In this document: positions 22,001 to 57,500 of the stretch, piece by piece
Layout of the letters: the number at the start of each line of letters is the position of its first letter
Numbering within the stretch: the first letter of the stretch is position 1
Source: Sphagnum compactum
Taxonomy: Eukaryota
Length of the DNA: 64,000 bases
Direction: 5' to 3'
NCBI GenBank assembly: GCA_965153455.1
Contig: OZ234493.1
Span: 29,440,213-29,504,212 of the forward strand
Made by a program: the position numbers and the translations under genes
Notes under the pieces: model-generated
What the model was told of the DNA's origin: nothing
Seen by the model: the letters and a program-made list of their open reading frames with translations, nothing else
Database searches by the model: none

Positions 22001-23400
22001 AATGGCCAAGGCAAGATGGGATCACAATTCAAAAAGCCTTACAAATATGGGCGGTGTCATCACAACATTCACCAATGATTTGTTTACAAAATTTGATGGA
22101 TAGATCACTTGTCAAGGTGAATGATAAAGGTAATTTGGTGATGCATGATCAATTACGTTATATGGGTCGACAAATTGTAAGAGAAGCTTCTTGTTATGAA
22201 TGTCGTAAACAAAGTAGGATTTGGGACAAGGAGGAAGCAAGAATGGTCCTTTTTAATGAAAAGGTATTTATTTCATCCTCAAATGTTCTTGAACTTTTAA
22301 ATTGTTTACCTTGATGGTTAAAACAACATTATGTGAAGTGTTACATATATGTATCAAAATCTAAGTCCATTCATGGCAATGCATATAAATTGGGGATGAG
22401 TTCCTTGAACTAATTGGTGTGGTGCTTTGTTGGTTTTTAGGTCACTTCGAATATTCAAGCCATGTGGTTGCCAGAAAATCTAGAACTACCACAAGAAGCA
22501 GCAACAACAAACTTTCACAAAATGAAGAAATTGCGAATGCTCATCATGGAAAGAGCTAGTGAGGCATTCATAGAATCTTGTTTTGGACAACATTTTCGCC
22601 AATTGAAATGGCTCCACATAAATTCTCACATGAAACAACTTCCTAAATCCATGCAACACCTTAATGGTTTAACTGTTTTGCAATTGCAAAATTGTCAAAA
22701 CTTGGTGTTCATACCAGAATTTGTCATAAGTAACATGACTTTACTAATGCATTTGGACTTCTATAACTGTTCGTCACTTATTGCGCTACCAATGACAATT
22801 GGGCAGTTGAAACATTTGACCGAACTACAGTTGGTACATTGTGAAAATCTTAAGGAGCTTCCTCAAAGCATTGGCAACCTCTCTTCATTATCAATGTTGA
22901 ACTTATCTTGGTGTAAGTCCATTGAATCATTACCAACAACGATTGGTCAATTGCAACATTTGACCCAGCTACGGTTGGTACAATGTGAAAGTCTTCAAGA
23001 GCTTCCTCAAAGCATTGGCAACCTCTCTTCATTATCAATGTTGAACTTAGCTTGGTGTAAGTCCATTGAATCATTACCAAGAACGATTGGTCAATTGCAA
23101 CATTTGACCGAGCTAAACTTGCAAGTATGTGTAAATCTTAAGGAGCTTCCTCAAAGCATTGGCAACCTTTCTTCATTATCAATGTTGGACTTAGTTGGTT
23201 GTAACTCCATTGAATCATTACCAACAACGATTGGTCAATTGCAACATTTGACCCAGCTATGGTTGGTAGGATGTGAAAATCTTAAGGAGATTCCTGAAAG
23301 CATTGGCAACCTTTCTTCATTATCAATGTTGGATTTTTATGGTTGTAAGTCCATTGAATCATTATCAACAACGATTGGTCAATTCCAACATTTGACCTAG
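19017..23400 (+). CDS. Alpha/beta-hydrolase-NB-ARC-LRR immune receptor (HNL-type NLR), LRR region prematurely terminated
   Basis: Exons ~19017-19025 (or start at ATG 19214), 19214-19521, 19942-20359, 20457-20606, 21148-22263, 22441-23400; GT-AG and phase-compatible. Hydrolase motifs: DVVFFHG, CWPQEWL, GHSFGG (GxSxG), DHFNVCKP. NB-ARC motifs: GMGGIGKTT, LVVIDDV, GSRIIMTGR, GLPL, MHD. 24-aa LRRs follow. Confidence 0.9.
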
Positions 23401-24630
23401 CTACGGTTGGTGGCATGTGAAAATCTTAAAGAGTTTCCTCAAAGCATTGGCAACCTCTCTTCATTATCAATGTTGGACTTAACTTGGTGTATGTCCATTG
23501 AATCATTACCAACAACGATTGGTCAATTGCATCATTTGACCGAGCTACGGTTGGTAAATTGTCAAAATCTTAAAAAGCTTCCTAAAAGCATTGGCAACCT
23601 CTTTTCATTATCAATGTTGGACTTATTTGGTTGTAAGTCCATTAAATCATTACTAATAACAATTGGTCAATTGTAGCATTGGACCAAGCTATTGTTCTGA
23701 AAATGTGAAAATTTTAAGGAGGTCCCTTAGAGCATTACAAGCCTTTCTTTCATTATCAATCTTGCACTCATCTGGTTGTAAGTCCATTGAATCATTACCA
23801 ACAACGATTGGTCAATGGCAACACTTGACCAAACTATGTTTGCAAAGATGTGAAAATTTTAAAGAGCTTTCTAATTGCATTGCAAGCCTTTCTTCATTAT
23901 CAATATTAGACATATCTCATTGTAATTCCATTGAATCATTACCAACAACAATTGGTCAATTGCAACATTTGACCATACTATTGTTGCGAAAATGTGAAAA
24001 TTTTAAAGAGCTTCCTCAAAGTATTGCAAGCCTCTCTTCATTATCAATATTGGACATATGTAGCTATAATTCCATTGAATCATTACCAACGACGATTGGT
24101 CAAGTGCAACATTTGACCCAGCTATGGTTGGTAGGATGTGGAAATCTTAAGGAGGTTACTCAAAGCATTGTAAACCTCTCTTCATTATCAATGTTGGACT
24201 TATCTTTCCGTAAGTCAACTGAATCATTACCAACAATGATTGGTCAATTACATCATTTGACCAAGCTACTATTGGCAAGATGTGGAAATCTTAAGGAGTT
24301 TCCTCAAAGCATTACAAGCCTCTGTTCATTATGAATGTTGAATTTATCCGGCTATATATCCATTGAATCATTACCAACAACAATTGGTCAATTGCAACAT
24401 TTGACCAATCTACGGTTGACAAATTGTGAAAATCTTAAGGAGTTTCCTCAAAGCATTGCAAGCCTCTTTTCATTATTAATGTTGGACTTATCTGGTGTAA
24501 TTCCATTGAATCATTATTAACAACGATTGGTCAATTATAATGTCTGATTGAATTACAATTGATAGGTTGTGAAAATCTTAATGAGCTTCCTCAGAGCATT
24601 CCAAACCTCTTATCATTATCAATGATAATG
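23401..24630 (+). pseudogene. Degenerate continuation of the NLR LRR array after the stop codon
   Basis: The same 144-bp unit (LPTTIGQLQHLT.L.L..CENLKE / LPQSIGNLSSLSMLDL..CKSIES) continues with stops at 23674, 24332 and ~24518-24540, and with frameshifts. Confidence 0.88.
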
Positions 24631-31570: not shown

Positions 31571-33066
31571 GTTGAGCTTTCATGGAGTGAAGTTCATCCA
31601 AAAAATCATGCTTGCTAGAAGGGACATCCATGGGCATCATGGCCTTCAACAATGAGCTTGACATCCCTTTGCATACTCGAACAAAAACAGAAGGGTTGTG
31701 CTAGGAAGTGCTCCTCTCAACCAAAGACCCGTAAAGTCAAGAGAGAAAGAGAGAATGGAAGCCTGTGGAAAAATAGTAAAAATCAGGGGCAATCTGATCT
31801 TTTGGAACAGAAGAATCAGCAGAAAAAAAATTCTGGAAAAAAAATTCAAGCATTGGGCAGCTCAGAAAATTTTAACAGATGGGTAGCTTGAAACTCATTC
31901 AGGCAGTCCACGAGATGAAGTGGACTTGGCAATCTGGCAATGTTACCTCGGTGATGAGGAGTTGGCCACTTGTGAATGGTGACTTAGCCATATCGGTACA
32001 TTGCTATTGGTCAAACATCTTCCGGCCTTTAACCACTTTGGTGTTTGGGCAGCACCAAGATGTGTCTAGTCATCACTAGACACATCATCTTAGTCCAACA
32101 ATTGGGCAGCCAAGGGAAAAAAAAAAAGTAGACAAAAGTAGGAAAACAGAAAGTAGACAATACTTCTGTATTGTCTGCAATAAGTATTGTTGATTTAATG
32201 TCTGCCCTTAAGAGCTTTAGTAGGCATGAGGATATATTATGTGTCACTGATGGGAACTAATAAATGGCTATGATATATTAAGGGTGCATTTCATGGACCT
32301 ATATCACCTCGAACGAAAAATTAATTTAACAATGGATTTTTAGACTTTTTTTTATCAAATTCCTTTTGATAAAAGAAAGAATTCACAAGGGGGTAACCCA
32401 TTATAACAAAAATTTCCTTTAATAGTTTACCATGTAAAAAGAAGTCATTTCTTATTATTAGTTTGTATAGGTACAGATTTATGAAAAATATAAGGAAATG
32501 TTAGTGAACCAAGACATGATCAGTATCTTGGTTCAATATGTTTCTTCCTTGTTTGTTCATCTAAAACATGACATGACACCTTTTGATTCCACTACCAAGT
32601 TTATCCCAAACTCTATGCACACAACTCTCCTAACCCTCTCAATCAAATCTCTCATAAGTTTGTTGGAATGTGTAGCATTGAAAATTCATATACTTCTAAA
32701 ATTTTCTTTTGTTGGTGGTCAATTGGAACTTATGTTTTCTTGTTGCAATCGACTTAAGAAGGTGAAATGCCTTGGCAATTGTGTCATTTTAGGTTAAGGA
32801 TATTTCATTTTGATAATGCTTTGCTTAGCTTGAAGATTTTTGTAAAGAATCTTTTGGTTGGAGTGGAGATATTCAAACAACATTGTATTGCTTTGAAAAT
32901 TAACTATGGATTTTTATATACGTTTGTTTTAGGAAGGAGCTTTAAGATCTAGGATCATAAATATGGTTATTATATTCCATGAAAAATATGATCTCAATTG
33001 CATGCCCTAGTGAATTTATATAAATATGTATCTTTGATGTAATTTTTGGAAATTTTGTAGGGAAAA

Positions 33067-36000
33067 ATGAAACCCAAGAATGTTTCATCTTCAAACCTAG
33101 GTTTGAATTATGAAGACATTGGGGATGAGCATGGGCAAATGACATACATTGGTCCAATTTCCAAAACTCAACAACTAATTGAAGATATTATGATGTCTAA
33201 AGACCCAACAAGAATTCTTAAAACAACATCAACAATCCCTACCGCAATTGCAAGTTCTTCTAATATTCATGAAACTAAAACTGTTGCAAGTTTCATGATT
33301 CCAAAAATGGCACCACAACAATCAAAAACTCAACAAATGATTGAGTCATTCCTTGTTTCAAAGTCTCATGGAGATCAACCATTAGATGATATATTTTCAA
33401 CATTCGAATCACAAGCTCCAAAGTTGATGGTATTGGTCCAACCTTCAAGTTTCTTGGAAGATGGTATAGTTGATATTACCCCACGTACAATATATGTAGA
33501 TCAACCAACAAGTGATACATCTGATTCCTTAGAATCACAATCTCCACATTTAATAACATCTATTCAACTTTCAAGTTCAAGATCACCACCAATGGACGTA
33601 ATGCCATTAACTACAATCTTGTCATACCTGTCAACAAATGATACATCTCCAATTTCAACATCACATTCTCCAAACTTGATAACATCAATCCCACCATCGT
33701 TGAATTCACGATTCTTAATTGATGGTGGGATGTCACCATTAACAAACTTGCCCAAAGCTATTTTGAAAGTTGAAAATTTTGATGAAATACCTCCATTTGA
33801 TAAGGCACAAATATTGTTTCCACAAGGAGTTCCACAAGGTAGTCAAGAACCCCACTTTGTCAATGATATGTTCCAAGGTGATCACAAATTGAATGAAATG
33901 TTACCACCTACAATGGCAACAACATTACAAAATCCAAAGATGGGAAAGCCAATGCTCCCATCTATAACACAATTCAAACCAAAAACTCAACTAAATATTG
34001 AAATATTCCCACCAACATCGGCACCAATATTACAACCTTCAATGGAAGATGTTGAAGAAGGATCAATGGAAGAATCAGTGTCTCTCACTAAAGAAGAGTT
34101 TACACCAAAAATTCAAGTTGAAAATGGGATGTTCCCACCAACATGTGCAACAATATTACAACCTTCAAAGGAAGTTGTTGAAGGAGGTTTGATGGAAGAA
34201 TCAATGTTCCTCTTAACAACAGAACTTACACCAAAAACTTTATTAAAAACTAAGATGGTTTCGCCAACAGAGGCATTAATATTAAAACCATCAATAGGAG
34301 AGATTGAAGGAAAAGCAATACAAGAGTCAATGTCCTTCTCTACGAAAGAAATTACAACCGAAACTCAATTAGAAAATGGGATGTTCCAACCATCATTGGC
34401 AACAATATTACAACCTTTGATTGAAGAGGAGATGAAAGAACCAAAAGTGTTTCCATCTATGAAAAAGTCTGTACCAAATGCCCAAGTAAATAATTATGAA
34501 AATTTCCCATCTACATCAAAAACAATACTGCAATCTTCAATGAGAAAGGTGATGGAAGAACCGATGTTCTTGTCTACAAAAGAAATTACATTCGCAAAAC
34601 AATTCCCACCTAATATAACTACAAAGGCACCAATGTTCCCACCTACAACATTGGATAGGTCCCCACTTGAAATGATCACACATGTGATTGCACCACCTCT
34701 AATTGCAACGGTGCCCCTTCATTCTTTAGGTGAACAAAATATTCCAAAACTCCTTAATACATTTCCAACTACATCATCAAGGAAAGGAGAACATGATGAG
34801 TTACAACCTTCTTCAAATGTACAAAAGGAAGTTTCAAAAATCAATATGTCAAGTCATCAAAATTGTGCATTGTTACAAATTTCACAATTTGAAAAATTAC
34901 AAGAGCAACAACAAGACTTATTACATTTTCAAGATGATGCATTGGTGGAACATTTGCAATGTGTGTGTGCACCAGAACAATCATTTTCAAGCAATCAAAA
35001 TGTTGTGATATCAAAGAAACATTTGGATCTTAAACATGTAATGGAACCAAAACAAGAATTTTCAAATCATCAAGACATTGGCACATTGGCTACATGTTTT
35101 GAAATAAAAAAATGTGGAATTGAACCACACGATTGGAACCATGAAAATGAAGAATGTAAAACAACAATTTCATTAGAAACTAATAGCACATTGTCAAATG
35201 TCATATCTTCCAAATCCAAATATTGTCTACATTGTTTGGAATTGGATAACTTGAATGCACTTGGTTCATTACACATTACTACTATTTCAATGCCTTGTTT
35301 GACAAAAGGGGACAATTTTATTGGCAACAATAACACCACTTTTATACAACAATGTTATTTTTATGCTCACAAGGATCAAACACCAAGTAATGACAAAATC
35401 TTAAAAGCAAGACTTGAAGATGAAAGTGCTTCAGAAGAAATAATTTTTGCCACATCCACATGGCATGAAAAACAACATGGCCATGGCCAAGGTGGTGATA
35501 ATTGTGTTATGGATAAATTTGAACCAAGTTTTTCAAAACACAAATGCGGAAGCAACCACCAAATCCAAATAAACCATATGAACCCAAGTAATGATAATAG
35601 TTCAAATTGTTCAACACAAGTAATTTTCGAACTTTCAAAAACCACATAGGAAAGATTCAAAGGTTATTGCACACTTTAAGTTGTGATCAAATTGGAAATG
35701 ACAATCATCCAAAACAAGAACCATTCACCTTGGGGTCCTCATGGTTTATTATCCATGTTTGCAGTACAGGATTATCAATTTGTTGGGTCAACAATGGCAA
35801 ATGATGTTCAAATACACAACTCAAAGTATGATTGTCTTGTGAAAATTTCTTACTGACAAATTTTTTCAAATTGTTAAAATAATTTTTTTTTACACAATTT
35901 CAATTATATCATTCTTCACAAATATGCAATGTTTATGACTTGTTGTGCTGAATTTAGTGTTGTTTATTTATTAGGGGAAGAATTCAAGTTTGTAATGATT

Positions 36001-42699: not shown

Positions 42700-43060
42700 T
42701 GCTTGTGGTTGTACCCATAGGTAATATCTCAATCAAAACTCAAATAGGTTTTACAATGTCTAGTTTATTCATTGACTCGTGTGTTACACTTCTTTGCTCT
42801 TTGAACCCATGTGAACAAAGAAATTTGGGGAGTGTTATATTTCCTTAAAAAAACCCCTCCTACAATCATCAATTCATGTGAGGTGCAAAATTTGTGTAAT
42901 GTTTCCAACAATCTTCCAAACCTTTGTAAAAGACTCACATTTGTATTACGTGCTCCCAATTCATGTTCCCTATGGTATCCCTCTAAGTTGATATCCATCC
43001 CATTCATGTTGTCAATGTTGATGTCCAAGCAATGGTCCACCCACAAGCCCCCTTGCTAGT
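42700..43060 (-). mobile_element. Degraded LINE endonuclease-domain fragment
   Basis: ORF 42765-43046 (...RFGRLLETLHKFCTSHELMIVGG...) resembles the segment after GDFNAR in AP-endonucleases of non-LTR elements. Short and eroded. Confidence 0.35.
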
Positions 43061-44582
43061 CATATGTCAATTATATCACAAGTGTACATAGCTCATTCCT
43101 ACATTGCTTTAACTTTTCAACCGTTCAACAAGTGGGTTCAATCAAATTGAAAGGCACTCATAGGAATTTCATGATGTATTTGGGGGTCACCTCATATTCA
43201 TGAATATTAGTGTTGCCTTTATCAATTGAACATATATTGTAACATACATTTATAAAGTATATATGTTCATGTGGAATCCAATTTTCCTAAAAATTGGTTA
43301 AAAAATCATTATTTAATTTGCAATGACAAAATTTTCTCAAACTTCAATCATTTTCACAACATAGTTGCGAAAATGATGAAATCGCCTCCATGCACCCATA
43401 CTCACTGAAGGCTTTCTTAGGATACCAAGATTGCAGCACCCCAAATTTCTTTAAGATTTTTTTTTGGAATTTTTGCTGATGAAAATACTCAAAATTCAAT
43501 AACTTTTGCATCATAGGTCTAAAAATTTATGAAACATTTTCATGCACCTCTATTCATCAAGAGTTTTCTAAGGGTGCTAAAAACACCCAAGGGAGGGGCT
43601 GGAGGGAAGGCGGAGATCTGAATGTATTGGCCGAACTGCATTAAACCTCTTGTAATGTTGCTCATAGTGATTGGCCCCATGGTTTGGGAGTGCCAAAAGC
43701 ATTCCCCATGTAATGTGAATGGTGATAGTACTAAAGGATAAATAAGATGGTCAATGGGAATCACTACTAGAAATTTTGTCATATGCAACCACCACGTTTG
43801 CAACTGGGATGCAACTACGGGTCGCATGCAACTATCTTTGGTTTTTTATGCAACTACAATGGATTTTTGCCCCCTTTTTGGGTGTGTATGCAACTATGAT
43901 CACCTTCATCCCAACCTTTGGATGATTTTTGTGATATATCATCGTATATATTTGATATGCATATACTCATAGTTGCATGTGCAACCAAAATAGGCCAACT
44001 ATGGTCTTTTGGTAAGCTGGGTACACATTTTTTGTACCCAGCGACCATTTTTTCAAACACAATTGCAGAACGCGGGAGAGTGTCGTGGTCTTCGGTGTCT
44101 GTCTCGAGCTTCTCAGCGGAACCCTAAACCTAGGCGTTGGAAACCCTAATGGGATTTCCTTCACTCTTCTCTAGGTTGTGCACAATTTCTCGTTTGCAGA
44201 TTGGGCTTTGTAAGAGGAATTGCAGAGCCCTTTTTGCTTGCTTGCTTGTTGCTTTTCCAGACTAAGAACTGCTTAGGTCTGGCTTGTTTGGTGTTTTTGG
44301 GAGAGTTCTAGGATGGTGGGAAACCAGTTAGAGTAGTACTAGTGGATATTGTTCATGAGCTTTGGAGGAGGACGGGGTGGAGAAGTGCAGAGAGAAGAGG
44401 CTTCTTTTTGTCTCTATTTCGGTAGAGGAGCGAGGCAGGAGCTTCTTCTTTGCTGCTGTGCGTGATTTTTTTTCCTTGGCAAGGATGACTTGATTTGGAG
44501 GTTATAGAGGAGGGCCCGTCGTGTTTTTGTACCACTGGTTAGATCATCGCGTTGCGTGCGAAATAGGGCAATACCGCGGCCG

Positions 44583-45332
44583 ATGGCAGCAGATGGAGAA
44601 GAGCGAGTTCTAATCACAGCACAACAGATTGTGAGATCGTTAGGCACCACAGATACTGCAATGACGGACGACATGCTCCAAATTCTCTCGAACTTTGATC
44701 ACAGATTCTCTAGCATGAATGACAAGCCCAAGAAGCTAGAGTTTAGTACCTCGCATGAGGTAGGCACAACAGCTACAGATGAGGATCTGCAGTCGAAGCG
44801 TTCCCGACCTTCTTCACGGGGTGCGGGCGGTTCGAAGATGATCGAATCGCGCCTTGATCATGCGGAGGATGTGGTGGTTCGATGGCATCTGCGATACTCA
44901 GAGCGAGCCAAGCAGCAGAGGATTTTCGAGTGCCCGGAAGAGGAGGCTTCCACTTATCTGGAAGCGGTGGACGAGGTACAGAACCTGCTGGATCAGTTGT
45001 CCGTGCAAAACAAGGAGGAGGAGCAGCAGCCTGCAACCCTGGAGAGAGCACAGAACGTGATTCAGCTGGCGATGGAGAGACTAGAGGAGGAGTTCCGCCA
45101 CTTGCTTGCGCAGAACAGCCGATCTGTGGACCCGGATTGGCTCTTTGACTCCATGGCAGTGGCTGGATCGTTCAGAAGCTCTTTCGATGACGATCATCAT
45201 CATACCGTAGATGATGCCGTAGCAGCATCGGAGATCAGCTCCTCCGGGGAGGAAGATGCCGCCGGAGATGAAGACGAAGACGTTCTCCCGGTGGCAAGAC
45301 CCAGAGAAATTGTGCCGACGACAGTGGATTTG
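44583..45332 (+). pseudogene. EXO70: Exo70 (exocyst subunit, F-clade-like) 5' fragment, exon 1
   Basis: MAADGEERVLITAQQIVRSLG...DDMLQILSNFDHRFS...YLEAVDEV...IQLAMERLEEEFRHLL...VDL is the typical plant Exo70 N-terminus. It ends at TTG|gtgcac (possible donor); the ORF otherwise stops at 45344. Confidence 0.88.
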
Positions 45333-45586
45333 GTGCACGCGTGAACGAACAACGAGAGAGGGAGAGAGAGCGCGATTTTCAGATCGATCAAAGTCATTTT
45401 TTCCTGTGTCGTTCTTGCGGGATCTGTGGCAGCAGTGGTGCTTGTGTGAAGGAATTTTTTCGTGGATTTTTATTTTCTAAAAATTTCACTTTTTTGTTGA
45501 GGATCCAGAAGAATACATATTGTGAGGTTGTGTTTTTGTTGTGGGAGTTGGGGGGGGGGGGGGAGGGTTGGAGTGAAGAAAAGAAG

Positions 45587-48500
45587 ATGGATTGGAGCAA
45601 TGTGACGGTGGAGGAGCTTGTGGATGCTCTCAAGGAAGTGGAGTGGGCCACGCCGCCAAGGCCACTGCCGGAATTCTTTCAGAAGTTTACCACCCCCAAG
45701 ACTCAATCCAAATGGAACGCTCGCCTTAAATGCAACGTTTACTAGTAAAAGCCCTTCACTTCTTCTTCTTCTTCTTTGTTTGTATGCGTGTGTGTGCGCG
45801 CTTGTGTAGTGCATCTTACTCTTTGGAAGATCTTACTCATGTAGGCAGATGCGTCAACAGCATGAATGTTTTTTTACTTTGGTTCCGAATTTTATTGTGA
45901 AGCTTTTGCTCTGGTTTCAGCCATGACCAGACACCTTCCGGTCTCCCAAAAGGTTCAGAGAGACGCAGAGATTATGATAGGATGGTGAATTTTGGGGAGC
46001 TGTGTTAGAGTCTTAGCTGGAAAACCTAGCTGGAAACCCTAAATGTTGGATCCAAATGCTGCTGTGTTTTAGGGTTACTCCTTTCACTACATCATGTGGC
46101 CATGATGTTCTTTTGTAAAATCCATCCTATGTGGTACTGTTGGTGTAGCTCAAGAACCCTTGAGCTCCCTTCTGTAGGATTTGAACTTTGTTTTTGCCTT
46201 TGAGTAACATGTGACCCTCTCTCTCTATGCCTTTGGCTTAGATGAGTGTGATTACAGGGACAAGCTAAAATCAAACAAATTTTTACCCCTCATAAGCTTG
46301 TTGCATTTTGAAAGAGGATACTAGTGACATTTTTATTATTAGAAGCTATATCTCTTGAGATATAGCCAACATCATGATGGAGTCTTCCTGCTGCTTCCAG
46401 ACATGCAACAGAAACTCAGGATGCAGATTTGTAGCATTGTTTGCCCAGGTTTTGGACTGTTCATTATATACTTATCCACACCACCCACCATCAGTCAGGA
46501 GCTGATGAAGTCAGTAGGTAGTCATGGCAGCTCATTGCTACTATTCATGATGAAGGTGATTGTCTGACACTTTATGAGCAAGTCTCATACAGTTTATGAC
46601 TGCACTTGTCGTGGAGATTGTCTGCAATATCATAGATACTTGAGTGACACATGGATTGAATTTTTCTTGCCTGTCATGAGGCTTGTGTTGTACATGAGGA
46701 CTGAACTATCAAGTTTAATAGAATAGAGTACCAGTTCTTGGTCTCTGGCAACAGGGCAGATGGACACCTACACACATGGATTGAAAGTTTGTCTCACCTG
46801 TCATTAGATCGTGTTGTACACAAGGGCTGCACTATCAAGCCTGATAGAATATAGTGCCAATTGTTGGGCTCTGGCAACAGGGTGGGCACCTGCACATGCA
46901 GATTGAAAGTTTTCTCTCACCTTTCCTTAGATTGTGTTGTACATGGGGACTCAACTATCAAGCTTCATAGAATGCAGTAGCAGTTATTGGACTCTGGCAA
47001 TAGGACCTACACCCACACATCATATTGCCATTGAAGTTCTAGCAATTGGAATTTTGTCCTTTCTTGTCTTTTATCCTCCAACATTCTTGTCCTGAAAGGT
47101 TGTCTTTATGCTCTCTGTTTTCTTCCTTCTTTCTTTTCTGGGGTTTCCTTATTTTCTTGCTGTTTCCCCTTTGTCTTTCCCTTTGTATTCCGTTCCTCTC
47201 TCTTCTTGCAGTTTTTTGGTCCTCTCTCTCTTTTAGGTTTTCTTGAGCTAAACATCATGGCTGAATTTTCCAGTTACTGATAGTCTTATGACAGAACTCA
47301 GGATTCAGTCTAAACTTTAAACTCTAAGCCCTCACCCCTTGCCAGGAACTGATGTCCCCTGTCTTTGGGCTACCAACATAATTGTGGCCATGTGGGCCTC
47401 CTTATTCATTCTAAACTGTCAAAAAGTGAAATACTCGAATTGGGGCTGCAAGACCCGATTTCCTTTTAGTAATTGGTTGTTTTGGCGAAAGCTGCTGATT
47501 ATCATTGACAGATTGGTATGAAGATTATGACCACTGAACCCATCATTGAAACTATTCTGACAATTTCTCAGAAGAATAAAAGAGGTCATGCCCTTACCTT
47601 AGGACAATCTTGGATATCACATTTGAAATAGTCTGCATTATACTCATGAGCATTTTCTCTCCTCTTTTCTAGCTCTTCTTTCAGATCATGCTTGTGAACA
47701 TGCTTCCTCTACCTTCTGGATGTTCTTTTTACAGTTATAAGTATGTGTGCAGCATTTGTGACTGCATACATCATCACATACAACACTCAATCTAATACAT
47801 TCTAAAATGTATTGGATGTGCAGCTATCGAACCAACTACTTGATCATCTTGACTCTGATGCTTGGTGAGTCAACTGATCACTGGCTAACTTGGAATTGAG
47901 ATTTTTCATATGGCCAAATGAGTCTGTGTACAGTCCAGGAGATGGTATCTGCGTTTGGTTAAGGCTGAAACATGCTAATATCTGAATACAGTCCAGAGCT
48001 TCTTTTTACTTGGAGGTGAATCATTTAAAAAAGAGTTATGATATGAGCTGCTTGAATATTTCTCAGAGTGTTTCTGATAACAAAATTGTTTGTCTACAGT
48101 GATTGCACTTCTGCGACGACCTTTGGGACTCATTGCAGTGATTTTTGCAGCTCTGAGCATTGGATGCCTGAATGACAGGTAACGTAAACTATTCTAACAG
48201 GCATGAGAAAGCTGAAGCATTGTATCACACAGCACCAGAACAAGCTCCTTTATGCATCGAGGCAAAATAGCAATTAATAGTTCCTGGGAGAGATGAAAAG
48301 TACTACTGCTTGTGCGACATTAAGAGATTGATCATTACTTCTTGAACATCCTGGCACCTTGGTTGTCATTAATGTGCTGTCTTGTCATCCTCCAGATCTG
48401 CTCAGAGCTCTGGGAACTTTTGAAAACTCTCAAATTATGAACAATATTATTCACTTTTTCTTTCTCATAACCAGTTTCTTAGTTTGTTTGCTGATGAGCT

Positions 48501-48946
48501 ATTTTGGTGAATTTGCAGTTTTGCAATGTCAGTAAGTGAAAAACTGATAAAAGCAATAAGGAAGATATCACCACCACTTGCTGCTAAGATGCGGCCACCT
48601 GTTAGGTATGCCTGAACACAACTAGCGTTATCAAACACAGATGCAGTTTCATCTCCTTACACCATACCAGATGTTTCTGGGAGTAATTGATGTTCAAAGT
48701 GACTAGTTGCCCTTAGCAACCAATTTTAGCAGAATTGGAATCCACTTTCGGCATCAGTTTCACTCATTGAAATTGAATGGCGTGTTTAGCATCCTCCACC
48801 TGTCCAGAAATTGGAAGAGCTGAATACATGGAATTTTTGCTGTGGGCTGTCCTTTTGCAGCTCAGGAACAAGAGGTCGTCCACTTAAAGGAGCAGTTTAC
48901 ATATGTGGCAAAGATCGCCGTTTCTTTGTTGTTGGCTTGATGTCAG
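45587..48946 (+). pseudogene. PRA1: PRA1 family (PRA1.A-type prenylated Rab acceptor) exons 1-5, lacking the 3' exons
   Basis: Exons 45587-45744, 47824-47864, 48100-48178, 48519-48605, 48861-48946 join in frame: MDWSNVTVEELVDALKEVEWATPPRPLPEFF...RLKCNVYYYRTNYLII...LNDSFA...LAAKMRPP...VYICGKDR. The C-terminal HASxRTPNLKARLNTFREEF part was not found. Confidence 0.88.
46645..47020. repeat. ~123-bp tandem repeat x3 in PRA1 intron 1
   Basis: The unit 'acatggattgaa...gtgttgtaca...actatcaag...atagaat...ctctggcaa' occurs three times. Confidence 0.8.
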
Positions 48947-49105
48947 GTATGCAACTTGATGACCATCCATGGTTTTCTTCAAAACTGTTTTTCAGATGTT
49001 GTCAGGAAGATAAGAGACCTTAGGGAAGGAGAGAAGTGCTAGAGAAGCAAAATTCAAATGACTACTTGTCACCCAAAGGAGAGAGGTGTATATTGTACAT
49101 GATGG

Positions 49106-49375
49106 ATAAGTGGTGAAGTTGTAATGGGCCTTGGTAACATAGCCCAGCGAATGATTGCCGCAAATCACCAGCTTGAGTGTTGTCAGGTGTATGTGAATTG
49201 TAGGAAGGCTGTGCTGGAGGACAGTTTGTATGGACTTGGGGTGGAGAAGCTCAGCATTGAGGAGGTCCAGAAGATGCCTTGGGATATCCTGGAGGACACC
49301 ATTCGGAAGTGGATCCAGGCAATGAAAGTGGGAGCTTTGGTGTTGTTTGCAAGTGAGAAGCTGCTCTGTGAACAG
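49106..49375 (+). pseudogene. EXO70: Exo70 fragment, exon 2 (continuation of 44583-45332)
   Basis: ISGEVVMGLGNIAQRMIAANHQLECCQVYVNCRKAVLEDSLYGLGVEKLSIEEVQKMPWDILEDTIRKWIQAMK...EKLLCEQ|gtttct directly continues the ...VDL of exon 1. The expected acceptor reads GG rather than AG. No further Exo70 exons follow. Confidence 0.85.
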
Positions 49376-51582
49376 GTTTCTCTCATCATCTCTCACACTA
49401 ATAGTCTCAGCTTTTTTGCCTCCACAAGACCCAATGCAAATAACCATATTTCAGCTGACTCACTTTCAGTAACACCCAGCTTTGCAACCCAGTCATTGCT
49501 ATGACACCTATTACAGAGTAACAGGTGTTGGAGGACAAGGATGTGATTGGGCTTGGCATATGTCTGATAACAGGTGTTGGAGGACAAGGATGTGTCCACC
49601 ATGGGGTGCTAATCAAGGAGTCATGGTTCCGAGTCCAGTTAGGTGAAATTGTGGCAGGTAAAGGTAACACCCCGTTGTTGGTGCCAAATGAGAATGATGA
49701 TCCCCCACAATGTGTATTGAAGGATGTAATAGGTTCAAGCACTGTATGGGAAGGTCGTTTAATGCAAAAGCATGCTTAAGTTAAGGGCACTATAGGTCGG
49801 GAGCTAGTTGATTTTTGAATCCTAAAACCCTAATGAGTAGTTATGGCCTTTTTTGGGTGTCAATGATATTTTGGACATTGTATGGTTTAACAGACCTGAT
49901 AGAGTGATGGATTCCTGGTTGCTGTAATTGGAACAATGGCCATTAAACCCCATTGGATGGAATTTCAATGTTATTACAAAGGGTAATTTGTTGGTCACAG
50001 ATCGATGTGTGTAATATTTATTGGTTGATTTTTCAGCACTAGTGGAATATAATAGAGACCTGATATGTATAATGTACATTAGTTAAAGTAGGTGTAGGTG
50101 TGTGAGGAACCCCAATATGGGCAAGGCAATGGTTAATGCTACTAATCTAGTTGCACATGTGACTATAGTGGCACACCTCAACCTTAAAACAGCAGTTGCA
50201 TTTGTAACTAAATCTAACAGTTGTTGTGCTGCCATGTGGCACACTATAAATGGTAAGATGAAAAACCCTAACCCTAACCCTAACCCTAACACCTGTAAAG
50301 TGGGACCATGTGACACATGGCGCTTCAAGCTACCAAAATACTAGTTGCAAATGCAACTACATCGTGCAGTCACTAGGTTGTCATATGGCATCATCCTGAT
50401 AATTCAATGGGGGTTAAACCCTATAACCCTAACCCTAATCTGTGCCACGTGTACAATGACATAGCATGGTTGATCAAGCCTTAAACCCAACACGTGTCCG
50501 CACCCCAACGGCTACGACTTGGACGGTCTAGATTAATCAAAGTAATTCTTAAAATTAAATATTTAATTACAAAATAAAAGTACACGTGTTCACATACAAT
50601 TGGGTTAGCTAATTAACATGTAATGCAGTGTGAACGCAACCCCTGTAGTTGCATGTAGTCGCACTTACGACTGCTAGTATAGAGTGTGGGTGGATGAAAC
50701 CATATAACCCAACCATATATACTTGTCATATACGGACTGTCGGATGCAACTGCAATTTTGATGCAACTTGTCTTAGGCAACTAGGCGAATTTCTAGTTGC
50801 AAGTGTCGCTTGCAACTGAAAACCAGTTGCATAAGACAGTTGCAAAATGGCAAATTTCTAGTAGTGAATTATCCCATGCATTTTCTCATGTGATGTAAGA
50901 AGGCAAACATAAAATGGTCAATAAGATAAAAAGTCATTGATTGGTTGAAATGGCTAAGTGTTCTTGGCCAAAGTATGAAGCAAGTTGAACAAGATTCCTT
51001 ATGGGTCCAAGTGTGAACTCAAGCCCAAGTGTTATGTTGTGTATAGAAGAAAGGTTTGCATTTAGACCTTTTAAAGAATTGAGCTCCCATTGAGATGGTG
51101 ATAGGTTGAGTTAGAGGGATTGAAATTCCTAAAGTCTCAATGCAAACCCATCATCTATGTAAAGAACTACAAAGACTTCCTATTTTATCTTTGAAAGCTC
51201 TTTCTTTTTTTTAAATAATATATTTGCCCTAAAGTTTTTCATGGTTACTTTGCTATCATCATCCTCTTTTGTGTGTAAGCTCCATCTTTGCATGCAACCT
51301 TCATTGTTGTTTTTTAACTTTTATAATTTCATGTTTGCTAGATTATAGAAGGGATTTGAGGGGATTTAAGATTTTCCATGTGACAATCTAGTTCACTTTT
51401 ACAAGGCAATTTTGAGTTGGGTCTCAATTTCCAAATTAAAGGATTGTTCCAGGTTTTTTGAATTCTTTTTTTTCCCCCCCCCAAACTTTGGCAATTTTGT
51501 TTTGGCTCAATTTTACAAACAATTTTAGGAGGTTGTGAGGATATGGATCACCTTTTCAAGGCCGTTTCATATCTTGTCTTAA

Positions 51583-54500
51583 AAGGCGTAAAAGAAATCC
51601 TTTGATCTGCGCACTTGTCAGTGTTTCGACGAAGAGAAAAGCGACAGCTTAGGGTTTAGAAAAAGGAATTGATGAATTTTTGCAGCTGTTGTTGTTGAGG
51701 TTCTTGAGGAAGAAGGAAACTGGAAACTCTGTAGATGCCATAGCACTCACTGACAAGCACTAAAAGAGGAGTTTTCTGCGGAGGATTTTTGAAAATAAAA
51801 TTAGTTGTGATTCCTAAACGTCCAGTTCCAAGAGCTCCATTGCAGTTGCTATACGTCCAAGGAGAGAGAAGAAAAGAACAAGCTTCTTACAAGCTTCTCC
51901 TTCGTCTTCTTTGCAAGGCGGGTGCGAGAAGGGTCCACAAGCTACGAACACTACTAAACCAGTTCTCGTTACCGTTTGGAGGTGGGCAAGGTGGACCGGG
52001 CCCTACTATTCTGAAACGGAGGAGCAAGGGAGGTAGGCATTAGAAAAAGGTTTGAAGTGGTCTTCAAGTTGATCGATGCGCGAGAAAACTCCACAATTCA
52101 GGACTTGCGCGACAACGAAGACGACCGACGACACAAGACGCTAAGCCACGCTACGCTGCAAAAGTAAGAGCGGCATCAGCAGAGCAGCCCCTATCCCGCG
52201 TTCATTCACTCGAGGTTGAAAGAGGTTGGGCCTGCCATCGCCACTGTCCTCGCTGCAACCAACCTTGTGCCAAGCACAAACGCCAGCAAAGACAGTTCTA
52301 GGTTCTTGGTTTTGACTTTTGAGGCCTTTTTTTAAAAATTTATTTTTATTATTTTAATTTTTTTGGGAGGGTGAAGGAGGGACGTAATTCTGGTCTCTTT
52401 TTCTCTTCTCTTCTATTTTCTTTTGTTCTCTAAACCCTAAAACCTCTTCTTTTTCTCTTCTTTTCCTTAAACCCTAAACCTCATTTCTTCTCTTCTTCAA
52501 AGCTCTTCTCTTCTCTTCTTCTTCTCTTCTTTAAACCTTAGACCTCTTCTCTTCTTTAAACCCTAAACCTATTTTCATTTCTTCTCTTTCACTTCTCTAA
52601 ACCGTAAAACATTGCTTGGATTTTTCCCTATGTATTTTCAGCTCACTTACTTGCCTAAAGAAACCTCTTTTCAACAATGTACCAGCCAGGCTGTATTGGG
52701 ATCTTCTGACCATAGGCCCTTTTCCTATACCATTTTTGTTTTAATGGCTAAAACCCATGTGTTTTTTGACTTCTCAAGTCCTTTTTAAAAATTAGACATT
52801 GATCTAGGGTTTAAGATTTGAAAAACTCCGCGATGGCACTCGATGCCGCACCGCTGCTATGTCCATTCAATGTAGCATCAGACATTTTCACGCTGAAGAA
52901 GGACACTGCCAAGACGTACTATAACAACGCCTCTCAATGTTCTAGACAATGCACCCCTTGGGGTCTACCAAGCAGCCCTGGCCGGGTACTGGGTAGCCCT
53001 GGGCCTCAAGACCGATAGCTCACCTGTTGACGCGTAGTTGTCCAAGATGGAGGCGGTCATTGAAAACATTGCGTCTCTCGCGGCCGCTGGCAACCTTACA
53101 ATCAACCAACTTATGGAGCATAAGGCGGCCGTGGCTGTCATAGCCAAGGTTGTTTCTGCGGAGGAGCCCAAGTGGACCATAGTGATGGCCAAGAACGTGC
53201 GCCAGGTGGTCAACCAAATTGTGGAGACCCTGGTTGATGCGCCCAAACAGGAAGAGCGCAAGCTCAACTTGTGCCTCATGGGCTTTGAGGCCAAGGAAGG
53301 TAAGACCGAGAAGGAGCTGGTGCAGCGACTCAACACAGAGCTATTGCAAGAGGAAATGAGGCTGTGCGCCAAGGTCGTGACCGCCATGCGGTAACGGCCT
53401 GCGACCGCACGAGCCTCCACCTCGGCGGCGGGCGTGTGCTTCGGTGCGGTGTTGCTCAAATTCGCAATGAGCGAAGACCGTCGAGCCGTGCTACGAGGGC
53501 ACAAAAGCCTAGGAGGGACCAAGCTAGGCCTAGATGAGGACCTCACGCCCGTGCGGCAAGCGTTTAAGTCATAGCTGTGGCCGCTGTTCAAGGAGGCCAA
53601 GGCGGCAGGCAAGCGCGCCTTCTGGCGCGCAGCCAAGCTCTTCATCAATAGCATTCGGATTTGCCCACCCGCCTCTATTTAAGGCCACAAGGACCAGAAA
53701 GACCTATGCATGGTATTATGGAACATGCACGGGGATGGTGTACATAAACTGGAAACGGGGGTGCAAATACTAGAGCTATTTCAGGATGCTGACCTTGTTT
53801 TATTAATCGAAACTTGGCACTTCCCAGGCCAACATTTGCCACACGTTGAAGGGTTTGACTCACTTGCGGTAGCGCACACTTTACAACCGGGAAAAACAAA
53901 AGCGATAAAACATAGCGGGAGGGGTTGTTGCTTACTTTCGCAGCCACCTCAGCCCAAACCTATCACAGTGGAAGGAAGGAAGGAAGCCACAATTCTTATC
54001 TATGGCTACGGGTCAATAGGGGTGCTACCCCTGACTTGTTTGTCTGCGTGGTGTATGTTGCCCCTATTGGCTCCAAACACAAGAACGAATCCTTGTTCCA
54101 AAACCTGGCAGTAGATATTGCTAAAGTTCAAACTCTAAGGGGCATAATATTATTGGGAGGGGATTTTAATGCGCGTACTGCAGCGTTACTAGATACCATT
54201 GACACTAGCGACCTTCGTGAACTGTTACAGGTGCCCAAGCTCGCTAAGACTGAGTAACCAAGTGTTGTGGTTAAGCGACAAAACCGTGATGTTAGTGTTG
54301 GTGGCTAGGGCCACGAGCTCCTAGACCTATGTTGTGACGCTGGGTTGTTAATCCTCAATGGCCAGACACCTAGCGACAAATCAGGGGAGTTCACTTGCTT
54401 GGCAAATGGGGGGTGTAGCACTGTCGATTATATTGTTGGCTTAAACGCCTACAATTTGGCAAATTATTACACACCTCGAGGTGATAACAAACGAAACCCG

Positions 54501-57500
54501 CTATTGTGCGATGGGGGGGAGATTGTGACCACAGGCCATTACGCTTACGGTTGAACATCGATTGTAGCTTTGTTGAGCCACAACATACAGTTGTAACAAT
54601 TTTTTTACCTAGGTTCAAATATGATAAATCAAAAGTTGAAGAGTATCAACTTGCCCTAATAGCAAATCTTGGAAACCTATGGGTTGCTGACTCAATTGGG
54701 CATCTGGGGGCAGACGGGTTAGTTGACCTACTGCAACAGTGCGTGGGTGCTGCAGCAGAGTCTACTTTTGGCAACAAGCTTTTGGGAGGAAACTGTAGAG
54801 CGAGACATTGCCATAAACCCTGGTTTGATGTTGACTGCCGTATAACGAAGCGTGAGCTGAGGCTTTGGCTGAAACCCAACCCTGATTTGCACGCCGTTAA
54901 ACATCAGGCAAGTAAACTTAAAATTTTATTAAAAGAGAAAAGAATTTTTTGGGAAACTGCAATAGCTCAACATATGTGTACGCTTGTTAAGGTGGATGCA
55001 CTCTCGTTCTGGAAAAAGTATCGGCCAAGGGTACCCGTTGGACAAAATCAGTGCAGCTACGCTTTTGGAAGGCTTTCGCGGGTTAGTTGGCGAGTCTCCG
55101 CCACCCATACGGTTGTGAATTGATCATTCGACCCAGGTGACGGAACCTCCACCTAGCCACACCCTAAACACAAATATCACACTTGCTAAGTTGCTTTAGG
55201 CACAAAAAAAACTACAAAGGAATAAGGCTGCTGGTTTGGATGGTATGAAAGCTGAGTTCATTTTGGATGCGGGAAAGCTACTACACATGCCATTATTGAC
55301 AACGTTCAACTGCTTTCTGGCGGAAGGCTTTCCAGAAGCCCTTTCCACTGGGGTGGTCCACGTGCTCTTTAAAGGGGGGCGATGCCTTCGAATTTGACAA
55401 CTATAAGGGGATAACTGTCGCAACCCCACTTTGGGTTAAGTGTGAGGGTGAAGCCCACACTCCCAAAAGTGGGAAGTTGGAGTCCTCCGGGACTCCCAAA
55501 AACTCAGAGGCAATTATAGGGGGTCAAAACACCTCGCCTTGAGGTGTTCTTTATATCAATGGAAAGGTCTTAAAGTGTAGATGTCTAAAATGCCCTCGCA
55601 TTGGCCATTTGGATATCTGCAGCCCAAGTTATGGGCAAAAGAAGGGCCAGGAGCCAAATTGGCAGTTTGACTCCTGACCACTAAAAGTTGGGAATCGAGC
55701 CCTTCTTGACGTTTGCAGAAGGAGTGCGACATGGCGTTGGAAAGCTCTCAAGGAGATCTACAACTTTGGTTGAGACCTCGCTCCAATCGGATGTTGCAAT
55801 CGGGAGATATGAGTTCCCAAAGTTCCGGGACTCCAACCCGGGACAGTTTCGGGACTCCAACTTGGGAGTCTCGGGAAAAAGAGCCATTTGGATGTAGCCT
55901 CGGCGGAGAAGCGCAGAGTATACTATATGGGGGAAGGTGGTGGCTTCCCCCGAGTTCGGGCCGTGGTGAGTCAAGTAGTCCAAAGTGCCCGTGGCTTGTC
56001 CCAACACCCAAGGGTGTTCCCGAATGCTAACTAACCTTCTTGTGGTTGGTTTTGGATGCAGATTCAAGCTTGATAATCTAGTCCCTCTTCCTAGTCTAAT
56101 CCCGGGACTTCTAGCACGCCCCTCTACCCCCTTTTAGTGCTGGAAGTCGGGAGCGGCCTTCAAGTCCCAATTTTCCGCAACTCTACGTAGTTGGATCCTT
56201 AAGTGGGTTCAAAAAAGGACTTGGGAGCGCGTCAATAACTGTTGGGCCTATCCTAGCAAAGCTGTTCGCTATGATCCTTGACAAAAGGTTGAGCAAGTGG
56301 GCTGAACAACATGGGTTACATGCCAAGGGTCAAGTTGGGTTTCACAAAGATTACCGCACTATTGACCAACTCTTCATACTGCAAACTTTGATAGAACAGA
56401 ACAAGGCAAAAAAAAACCCACTCTATTATTGCTTTGTGGACTTCAAAAAGGCGTTCGATACTGTGCCGCGTGAAGTGTTATGGGAGGTGTTGGCAAGCCT
56501 CGGGGTGGAGAGACGCTTCTTGCGATGCCTACAGGCGATGTATACCAAGGATACCGTATGCATCAACCACCCAAGTGAGGGTGTCACCTCTAGCTTCAGA
56601 TGCCAATGAGGTGTGAAGCAAGGTTGCCCTCTCAACCCCTTACTGTTTGGGCTATATTTGGATGCCCTAGAGGGGCGCATGGACGGCAGAGAATGCGATG
56701 CACCGACCCTAGCAAACGTGCATGTATGGTTGTTGCTTTTTGTAGATGACCTTGTTTTGACGTCGGAGTCAGAGGTGGGACTGCAGCAACAGTTAGACGC
56801 GCTCTAGTAGTTCTGTGCTGAACGTGGATTTATAGTGAACGTGAAAAAAATAAAAGTCATGGTGTTCAACTCTGCTGACCCATGCCAAGAGTTTGTGTTT
56901 GAAGGTGATGCTATTGAACGTGTGCAGACCTTCAAATACCTGGGGATCTTTCATCGAGACCACCCCGAACCTGGATAGTGCAGTGGAACATCAAGCAGCT
57001 GCCAATAGGCGCTCATTGTTCGCATTGAACCGCCGTTGTGCGGAGCTACGTATTATGGACGTCCAGTTACGCTGTGACCTCTTCAACACGTTGGTGCGTT
57101 CCACAACAAGTTATGCCTATGAGGTTTGGGTGGATTCCAAGAAAATAGAGGCTATTGAAGTAGTGTACCGAAGGTTCCTCAAGTCCTTGCTCGGGGTGCG
57201 AAAAATAACTAGCACGTCCATCGTGTTGGCAGAATTTGGCAAATTCCCCTTTGAACACTTTGCATGGGGATAAGCGCTGTTGTACTATAACCGTGTGAGC
57301 ACGGTCATTAAAGATTGCATCTTGGGAAAGGCATGGGAAGCCCAGCTCGCTATGCTTGCTATGGGAAGAACTTGGGCTAGATCCGTGAAAAAATGGTTAC
57401 TCAAGAATTAGCCCCAAGAGGTGGTAGGTTTTCTGCCTTCGGTTCAACCGTCGTTGGAAACAGCGCTTAAGCTTGCAACGACCCGTGTGTTCTAGGCGAG

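Follow-up and report, generated by a model that had tools for sequence, protein, structure and literature searches.

A probable non-autonomous CACTA Pack-TYPE transposon in Sphagnum with PRA1 gene sequence inside an Exo70 gene fragment

Results

The window analyzed here is a 64-kb stretch of DNA, assigned to Sphagnum by its best protein matches, and its positions 43762-50866 form a CACTA-ended element of 7,105 bp. The left TIR (43762-43776, + strand) matches CACTACTAGAAATTT exactly and is complementary at 15 of 15 positions to the right TIR (50852-50866, - strand), each being the sole partner of the other, since the window holds only these two exact copies. With up to two mismatches allowed, the window gave three matches, a number reached in none of 100 shuffles. 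By a rough estimate, about 0.6 perfect 15-bp inverted pairs less than 10 kb apart are expected per 64-kb window; such a pair is therefore not rare on its own, and the case for the element is made by the combination of its features together with evidence from its family. The trinucleotide AAT, read directly at 43759-43761 and in identical form at 50867-50869, makes up the two copies of the TSD. The outer flanks had been proposed to be two parts of one interrupted repeat, but their similarity did not go beyond chance (score of 38, against 25.3 +/- 4.5 and a maximum of 40 in shuffles) and no longer flank-to-flank homology was found. The element sits in TE-rich intergenic DNA.

A single metagenome scan, for which the Exo70 piece served as query, returned 59 related loci (designated L), possibly from several moss species, so that locus counts are not copies per genome. 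The left subterminal region (43762-43995, + strand) has eight TGCAAC/GTTGCA motifs and is conserved in the left ends of the family. The density of these motifs is 33 per kb at 43762-44000 (8 sites) and 15 per kb at 50140-50866 (11 sites, spanning 50150 to 50844), against a background of 1.0 per kb in the element interior and the rest of the window alike. Both ends share the layout of TIR, 7 nt and TGCAAC, and the inner edges of the subterminal regions are marked by an inverted pair (43969-43993 and 50142-50166). The left region is followed by a family-shared segment with telo-box-like AAACCCTAA motifs (43996-44315, + strand), for which homology is continuous from the left end in family copies; it has no counterpart upstream of the parent-type Exo70 gene at L009, where homology begins at about 44316. 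On the other side, the family-shared right end (50256-50866, + strand) is 85.6-86.5% identical to its counterparts in L002/L003, L016/L017 and L050, and contains two telomere-like runs of AACCCT (50264-50290 and 50424-50438). It is preceded by a segment seen in the window copy only (49520-50255, + strand; no match in the 59 loci), which opens with a 49-bp duplication and has 27-bp perfect repeats at 49519-49545 and 49568-49594. Elsewhere in the 64-kb window neither terminal region recurs, and an Rfam search of 43000-51600 matched no family.

The element contains 58 ORFs of at least 50 aa, two of which match a Pfam family at E<=0.001 (Exo70_N and PRA1), while none matches a transposase family. 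The CACTA TIRs, the flanking AAT, the subterminal arrays and the lack of a transposase over 7.1 kb, all put forward in the original prediction, are thus borne out. Neither the window nor the ORFs scanned from long loci (14 of the 35 with at least 180 aa) yielded an autonomous partner or transposase, and movement of the element would need a family transposase acting in trans. The ORF at 49522-49776 provides a lead only: it looks like the C-terminal domain found in CACTA accessory proteins and could be a relic of one. It has 51 relatives at E<=0.001; the one within P0185 adjoins a weak Transposase_24 match (E=0.0055), and Atlas neighbours of P0185 bear DUF8039/Transposase_24, with scores below 0.9. 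The ORF itself has no Pfam match, and DUF8039 was not matched in it or its relatives even at E<=10, in a Pfam copy that may lack this model.

Two pieces of an Exo70 gene lie on the + strand. Part 1 (44316-45338), identified by tblastn, Pfam and alignment to L009, comprises 267 bp of upstream/5'UTR sequence and codons 1-252 in an open frame; tblastn places aa 1-250 at 44583-45338 with 92% identity to the Sphagnum fallax Exo70 P0001, and the Exo70_N domain is detected with E=1.9e-17. DNA identity to L009 is 95.2% over 44319-45335, and 95.7% over 44319-45332 in a second alignment. Part 2 (49112-49519; 94.8% to L009/L055) comprises codons ~253-339, ending at 49378, and 141 bp of the parental intron 1; by tblastn, aa 251-339 are located at 49106-49378. 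The frame is open in both pieces (252 and 89 codons). L009 and L055 carry intact Exo70 genes, in which aa 1-339 are encoded by one exon that is followed by an intron and then by aa 340-706, and have neither CACTA end nor PRA1. Both pieces of the window element therefore come from that one exon, and the earlier description of them as exon 1 and exon 2 is incorrect. Part 2 directly adjoins part 1 in L009 (position 3027, then 3033), which means that the 3.77-kb PRA1 segment interrupts coding sequence of Exo70 rather than an intron, and that 3 bp have been lost. Divergence from the parent is equal for the two pieces (95.2% and 94.8% identity), as a single capture predicts. Aa 340-706 were found nowhere on the + strand of the window, and only the first 38 of the 372 positions of Exo70_C could be aligned, below cut-off (E=0.0057), so the element lacks the full C-terminal domain of a functional EXO70. 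Ka/Ks against the parent was 0.68 for part 1 (27 changes) and 0.33 for part 2 (7 changes), numbers of changes that are too few to show selection and that include the parent's own constraint.

The PRA1 segment (45339-49111, + strand), recognized by tblastn with the S. fallax PRA1 P0068, comprises up to 248 bp of upstream/5'UTR sequence, exons 1-5 (aa 1-150), introns 1-4 and the start of intron 5. The inferred exons lie on the + strand at 45587-45744, 47824-47864, 48100-48178, 48519-48605 and 48861-48946, each with 88-98% identity to P0068, the short exon 2 having been found separately. GT-AG is kept at all four introns and a GT donor follows exon 5. Retention of introns and splice sites points to acquisition at the DNA level, in agreement with the original prediction. 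The Pfam PRA1 score on exon 1 is below cut-off (26 against 30.1 bits), and aa 151-208 were found nowhere on the + strand of the window; the complete domain (~208 aa) of a functional PRA1 is absent, with exons 1-5 only, and both genes are 3'-truncated here, as had been claimed. Intron 1 holds a 123-bp tandem repeat of 2.9 copies (46647-47004, + strand; Tandem Repeats Finder, 77% matches). Intact parents had been expected elsewhere: for Exo70 they were found at L009/L055, and for PRA1 at the protein level only, as complete proteins of 208 aa from S. fallax and S. tenellum. In S. fallax, the locus tags of the Exo70 parent (01G) and of PRA1 (12G and 06G) denote different chromosomes. Delivery of PRA1 by a second transposon was considered and rejected, given that there is no inverted repeat pair at 45339/49111 and that these edges lack CACTA ends.

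The module common to the family consists of the left end and a 1.0-kb Exo70 5' fragment. Alignments reach the exact left terminus in 12 loci; the terminus has no more than one mismatch in 8 distinct loci (12 locus entries), and L002, L045 and L058 have more diverged ends. The TE-borne sequences form 25 clusters at 99% identity. Nine different left flanks were seen in addition to that of the window, i.e. at least 10 insertion flanks, and mobilisation after capture is therefore observed for the Exo70 module but not for the PRA1-bearing form: PRA1 was present in none of the 59 loci of a scan that could retrieve Exo70-bearing relatives only. Matching 3-bp TSDs flank all three complete elements, namely the window element (7,105 bp, AAT), L002 (3,391 bp, TTT) and L050 (6,131 bp, TGT), and the same left and right ends are paired in L002 and L050, each with its own TSD. 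The idea that other copies with different cargo should exist is thus confirmed in metagenome loci. The right end of the window element is less similar to the family (~86%) than its left end (~91-93%), so the window element could itself be a hybrid.

Among TE-borne loci that extend 150 bp or more past the break in Exo70, 34 of 36 share a second cargo, which corresponds to aa 75-471 of an S. tenellum gene model and is RNF4-like (PDB RNF4 RING, E=2.7e-4; Atlas score of 0.92). L023/L059 carry Cpn60 and Rpb2 fragments instead, and in L050 Exo70 breaks at 45069 and is followed by other ORFs. Because sister elements carry such unrelated pieces, the vesicle-trafficking theme of the window element looks coincidental, which had already been allowed for. 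In the majority subfamily the break falls after 45332, only 6 bp short of where PRA1 is inserted (after 45338), an awkward coincidence if the two events were independent. Such elements have been annotated as chimeric genes in at least one public gene model of Sphagnum (P0029, with no Pfam match at E<=0.01). The only match to the terminus pattern in genome contigs, in a Bacteroidales MAG contig of 22.7% GC, had no further similarity and was set aside as chance, and the pattern was not found in viral contigs.

Relatives of the window element have decayed through C>T change at CG/CHG sites; C>T/G>A accounts for 1013 of 1234 changes, and the open Exo70 frame is kept in none of 24. The window copy differs from the family majority at 19 positions, without C>T bias (8:8:3). 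In a star-like tree it is basal and nearest the parent (support of 0.88), on a branch of 0.012 compared with 0.02-0.05 in other copies. Word sharing with sequencing runs was 0.52-0.67 for DNA runs of one organism, 0.35-0.45 for others and 0.21-0.23 for metatranscriptomes, values that are no evidence of presence, orthology or expression.

Discussion

Our results indicate that 43762-50866 is very probably a non-autonomous CACTA (En/Spm-type) Pack-TYPE transposon in Sphagnum, for which a history of captures can be proposed. It combines CACTA TIRs, a 3-bp TSD and subterminal arrays, the kind of ends on which a CACTA transposase works, with host gene fragments and no transposase coding. The two ends could in principle belong to separate elements, or have been brought together by misassembly, and a single perfect 15-bp inverted pair would not argue strongly against this, being not rare alone. 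However, neither terminal region is copied elsewhere in the 64-kb window, the flanking trinucleotides are identical, and the same ends pair in L002 and L050 with 3-bp TSDs of their own, all of which makes it hardly credible that no single 7.1-kb element exists.

We propose that an ancestral deletion derivative would have captured a contiguous 1.43-kb Exo70 piece, made up of 267 bp of upstream sequence, codons 1-339 and 141 bp of intron 1. On the line leading to the window copy, genomic DNA from a PRA1.A-type gene (3.77 kb, with 5'UTR, exons 1-5 and introns) would then have entered at codon 252/253 with the loss of 3 bp. That this step was an insertion is probable; its likeliest route may be that ectopic DNA was copied while a break or gap was being repaired (template switch), a mechanism that we put forward tentatively. 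In other lineages, the Exo70 piece would have been truncated, 6 bp upstream or beyond, and fused to other DNA of the host, which agrees with the hybrid-element route known from Arabidopsis Pack-CACTA. The original prediction of sequential gene capture by a CACTA element in a bryophyte is supported and strengthened; that Exo70 preceded PRA1 is what we infer.

The exact parental adjacency of the two Exo70 pieces and their equal divergence would also be explained if a chromosomal Exo70 gene had already been broken by PRA1 and the chimera had been taken whole, with other subfamilies later losing the part right of codon 250; the nearby break of the majority subfamily would then be a secondary loss at a pre-existing junction. 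We consider this unlikely, since the only intact parent-type loci seen, L009 and L055, are without PRA1, the closest Exo70 and PRA1 genes of S. fallax are tagged to different chromosomes, and no chromosomal chimera was seen among the sampled Exo70-bearing metagenome contigs. Another route is the one modelled by Catoni et al. and documented in Arabidopsis (PMC6379663), in which tandem copies of an Exo70 element around 3.8 kb of PRA1 would have been fused by complementary terminal deletions, so that PRA1 was caught between the left portion of one copy and the right portion of the other. It fits the constant ends and variable centre of the family and the greater divergence of the right end, but both deletions would have to end 3 bp apart in Exo70, a very improbable outcome for independent events, and we give this route little credence. 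Insertion of PRA1 into an Exo70 piece already carried by the element remains our preferred reading.

The perfect TIRs, open Exo70 pieces, intact PRA1 splice sites and unbiased 19 differences favour the idea that the window copy is a live or recently live element of the source lineage, spared the methylation-driven decay of the sampled relatives and possibly expressing from its Exo70 promoter. As a whole, this idea is unlikely. If true, a truncated Exo70-N protein, Exo70/PRA1 chimeric transcripts or small RNAs might act on the parental trafficking genes.

Pack-TYPE elements are a known kind, and no description of them in mosses was found in the literature searched. The published genome paper (PMC9946827) gives CACTA elements as the largest classified class of repeats in Sphagnum (6.8%), and the present element extends to a moss the CACTA Pack-TYPE gene shuffling worked out in Arabidopsis, maize and rice. 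Its family offers a readable series of acquisitions (a parent gene, a copy whose two-part Exo70 piece is intact and at least three different right-half replacements) that can test models of capture. The chimeric nature of P0029 calls for caution wherever moss annotations or peat metagenomes list Exo70 N-terminal "genes".

Soybean Tgm-Express1 and Ipomoea Tpn1 likewise belong to CACTA and hold captured fragments of host genes with their introns; they were found through mutant alleles, whereas the Sphagnum element lies in TE-rich intergenic DNA. Rice Pack-MULEs, which PMC6379663 and PMC8903248 mention, likewise capture at the DNA level, form chimeric ORFs and come to be annotated as genes, but belong to the Mutator superfamily, with long TIRs and a 9-bp TSD in place of CACTA ends and a 3-bp TSD. 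Pack-TYPE is used in PMC8903248 for elements with TIR and TSD, no transposase match and a match to coding genes, and the maize and rice examples given there likewise hold fragments of more than one chromosomal locus per element, with maize Pack-CACTAs reported to hold the most distinct loci; the Sphagnum element differs from them in TIR family and host, and in that its acquisitions can be ordered by comparison with its family and parent gene. Closest are Arabidopsis Pack-CACTA1a and its relatives (Catoni et al. 2019, PMC6379663; Gisby and Catoni 2022, PMC8903248), described as transposase-less, with CACTA-type ends, a TSD and host gene fragments, and, as in the Sphagnum family, with shared 5' and 3' parts around a differing centre. 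The first 8 bases, CACTACTA here and CACTACAA in Arabidopsis (PMC8903248), differ at one position. In contrast to the Arabidopsis case, mobility of the Sphagnum family is read from sequences rather than seen in real time; the window element is also much larger (7.1 kb), its host is a moss, the constant module of its family already holds a gene fragment with promoter, and one cargo lies within the coding sequence of another, an arrangement that the tandem-hybrid model does not readily give. With PRA1 lying among Exo70 codons, a templated insertion is a better fit than the tandem-hybrid route.

Element boundaries and surroundings

The element (43762-50866) opens with CACTACTAGAAATTT at 43762-43776 on the + strand and closes with the same sequence at 50852-50866 on the - strand, both as exact matches. 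No further mismatch-free site occurs in the window, and with up to 2 mismatches there are 3 sites against 0.34 expected, a number reached in 0 of 100 shuffles. AAT lies directly outside both termini, and at both ends TGCAAC follows the terminus inward after a 7-base spacer. The first 239 bp of the element contain 8 copies of this motif or its complement (33 per kb) and the final 727 bp contain 11 (15 per kb), against 0.98 per kb in the element interior and 1.05 per kb in the remaining window. Window sequence and motif density thus bear out the CACTA termini, the AAT flanks and the TGCAAC subterminal arrays of the original prediction. Neither terminal region has a second copy in the 64-kb window, so each end has its sole partner in the opposite end. 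Telomere-like AACCCT/AAACCCTAA runs were also seen in the right subterminal region (50264-50290 and 50424-50438) and in the family-shared segment preceding the Exo70 piece (44119-44150), and arrays of the same kind lie to the right of the element (52408-52570).

A Pfam search at E≤0.001 matched 2 of the 58 element ORFs of at least 50 aa, to Exo70_N and PRA1. None of the 58 matched a transposase, in agreement with the proposed absence of this enzyme, and an Rfam search across the element returned no family.

Elsewhere in the window, an NLR-type resistance gene candidate is located about 20 kb upstream of the element (21148-24334, +); its NB-ARC domain (E=1.5e-26) is accompanied by a Roq1-like winged helix, and long LRR ORFs come next (LRR_14, E=2.2e-38). 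To the right of the element is a LINE-like retroelement with several broken frames (53683-57273, +), whose ORFs match endonuclease/exonuclease/phosphatase (E=0.002) and reverse transcriptase RVT_1 (E=6.5e-9). An ORF at 13613-14185 (+), inside a GC-rich block at 12-20 kb, has a match below the cut-off (E=3.8e-7) to DUF659, a domain of hAT-type transposases. An unbroken, repetitive, Ser/Pro/Thr-rich ORF of 862 aa at 33061-35649 (+) has no Pfam match at E≤0.01.

The captured genes and the Exo70 parent

The best protein matches of the cargo are all from Sphagnum. A 253-aa frame (44583-45341) is 92% identical to a 706-aa S. fallax Exo70 (locus tag 01G), while a 52-aa frame (45587-45742) shares 98% identity with 208-aa PRA1 proteins from S. 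tenellum and S. fallax (tag 12G); its identity to another S. fallax PRA1, tagged 06G, is 92%. By tblastn and a local scan of the window, the gene pieces were placed on the + strand as Exo70 aa 1-250 (44583-45338), PRA1 aa 1-150 in five exons (between 45587 and 48946) and Exo70 aa 251-339 (49106-49378), with both Exo70 halves in open frame. A scan of the window's + strand found neither Exo70 aa 340-706 nor PRA1 aa 151-208, in agreement with the predicted 3' truncation of both genes. GT-AG and the reading frame are kept at all PRA1 exon borders; the PRA1 piece was therefore acquired as DNA, as had been proposed from its introns. PRA1 intron 1 also holds a 123-bp tandem repeat of 2.9 copies (46647-47004). 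Just ahead of it, 46403-46606 is about 70% identical to stretches lying several kb downstream of Exo70 paralogues in three related loci (L046 17634-17806, L048 11319-11520 and L054 17635-17807), suggestive of a small dispersed repeat.

Scanning metagenome contigs with the Exo70 piece gave 59 loci, and 2 of them (L009 and L055) are parent-type loci. These carry an intact Exo70 with 92-97% identity to the S. fallax protein, in which aa 1-339 occupy one exon, followed by an intron and then aa 340-706; neither a CACTA end nor PRA1 was seen in them. Homology to the parent starts at about 44316, 267 bp upstream of the ATG, and stops at 49519, 141 bp inside the parental intron. Of the parental sequence within these limits, 3 bp are missing between the left piece, which stops after 45338, and the right piece, which restarts at about 49112. 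In both parent-type loci, sequence matching 44319-45335 directly precedes that matching 49114-49519, and this adjacency indicates that the two Exo70 pieces together make up a single contiguous 1.43-kb fragment from the first exon and its flanks. The halves are also alike in their distance to the parent (95.2% and 94.8% identity). By this comparison, the 3,773-bp PRA1 segment interrupts the Exo70 coding sequence and not an intron, and the labels Exo70 exon 1 and exon 2 of the original prediction were wrong.

A mobile family with variable cargo

The other loci comprise 5 paralogues of 58% identity and 52 with the Exo70 5' piece in transposon context, or fragments; the contigs may derive from several moss species, so counts are not per genome. 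In 12 loci, homology to the window begins exactly at the left terminus; these have 9 distinct left flanks, none of them that of the window. Complete elements are present in L002 (3,391 bp, with TTT on either side) and L050 (6,131 bp, with TGT on either side), so that all 3 complete elements, with AAT in the window, show a matching 3-bp duplication.

In 36 transposon-borne loci the sequence extends 150 bp or more past the Exo70 piece; in 34 of these the break comes after 45332 and one common sequence follows. This second cargo corresponds to aa 75-471 of P0029, a 471-aa S. tenellum gene model whose aa 1-74 are Exo70. It is an intron-containing, RNF4-like RING gene, judged by a match to the RING domain of RNF4 in PDB (E=2.7e-4) and by the nearest named Atlas cluster, which is RING-type (0.92, 175 shared features); P0029 has no Pfam match at E≤0.01. 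P0029 is thus a transposon annotated as a gene, with an Exo70 fragment spliced to RING cargo (compare L006 and L030). L002 and L003 share the break and continue differently, L050-L052 break at 45069 and run into other ORFs, and L023 (1141-3132) and L059 break at 45213, with Exo70 to about aa 210. In the last two, fragments of two further genes follow, one for a Cpn60 chaperonin (E=9.8e-10) and one for the second-largest subunit of RNA polymerase (Rpb2 domain 2, E=1.3e-18). PRA1 was found in 0 of the 59 related loci. The anticipated copies with the same termini and different cargo were therefore recovered, and their unrelated cargo favours the earlier suspicion that the vesicle-trafficking theme shared by Exo70 and PRA1 is most simply a coincidence.

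Outside the gene pieces, 43996-44315 is common to the family, yet missing upstream of the parent gene. Identity to the family at the left end is typically 91-93% for the closer copies (range 81-93%) and is lower at the right end, where the last 611 bp are 85.6-86.5% identical to family right ends. Between that end and the Exo70 piece, 49520-50255 has no match in any of the 59 loci and opens, exactly at the Exo70 breakpoint, with a 49-bp duplication. For an 85-aa ORF within it, 51 relatives were found at E≤0.001. Most of them are short ORFs, but one forms the C-terminal end of a 367-aa protein that weakly matches Transposase_24 (E=0.0055, below the cut-off). Atlas neighbours of this protein, all scoring below 0.9, include DUF8039 and Transposase_24, and one such cluster is named CACTA En/Spm transposon protein. 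That the segment could be a remnant of the autonomous ancestor is a lead, not a result.

Several family copies differ further on their left side. A 287-bp stretch (44347-44633) that includes the Exo70 start codon is missing in nine loci (L014, L015, L018, L019, L026, L027, L037, L043 and L053), and homology is lost left of 44029-44099 in L030, L032, L039, L021 and L025; about 2.7 kb further upstream, L030 has an LTR-retrotransposon reverse transcriptase ORF (RVT_2, E=2.9e-36).

Decay of family copies

Of the distinct sequences, 33 span 850 bp or more of 44319-45332, and among these 25 transposon-borne clusters were separated at 99% identity. The shared piece gives a star-like tree in which terminal branches measure 0.02-0.05, and the window copy groups with the parent (support 0.88) on a branch of 0.012. 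Counted against the majority sequence of the family, the other 31 transposon-borne sequences hold 1,234 differences, made up of 1,013 C>T or G>A, 65 reverse transitions and 156 transversions, whereas the window copy has 19, split 8:8:3. In 25 representatives, C>T changes per site and copy amount to 0.104 at CG, 0.112 at CHG and 0.023 at CHH; we read this as the signature that deamination of methylated cytosines would leave in silenced repeats. The Exo70 frame is open in the window copy and in 0 of 24 representatives, where premature stops recur at codons 13, 32, 69, 99, 107, 110 and 132 across different copies. The same contrast is seen in the left-end region (43762-44318). Judged from its sequence, the window copy is unusually intact, and this may reflect a recent origin, an unmethylated state, selection or another host species.

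Origin of the chimera

The variety of flanks and cargo shows, at the level of sequence, that the CACTA-ended module with the Exo70 5' fragment is mobile and that the DNA following it varies from member to member. A contiguous Exo70 fragment would have been captured once; PRA1 genomic DNA would then have been inserted into it in the lineage of the window, and in other lineages the right half would have been replaced instead. We favour insertion because the two Exo70 halves adjoin with 3-bp precision in the parent, and for PRA1 our preferred, putative mechanism is a templated insertion that would have accompanied the repair of a break or gap. The tandem-hybrid model of Catoni et al. (PMC6379663) involves two independent terminal deletions; it fits the right-half replacements of the other subfamilies, but such deletions are not expected to yield so precise an adjacency. 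Capture in one step from an already chimeric Exo70-PRA1 locus is a less probable but live rival to later insertion of PRA1, since the break of the majority subfamily (45332) is just 6 bp from the PRA1 insertion point (45338).

Comparison with known elements

In the literature covered, for most papers listings and abstract openings, we found no description of gene-carrying CACTA elements in mosses. Pack-CACTA elements were defined in Arabidopsis, and catalogues for rice and maize include Pack-TYPE elements from several superfamilies (PMC6379663, PMC8903248). The main text of PMC8903248 does not contain the words Sphagnum, Physcomitrella, bryophyte or moss. In the Sphagnum genome paper, CACTA is named a single time, where it ranks first in abundance among classified repeat types (6.8%; PMC9946827). 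On the features described here, we regard the Sphagnum compactum element as a real, well-bounded Pack-CACTA with an informative family.
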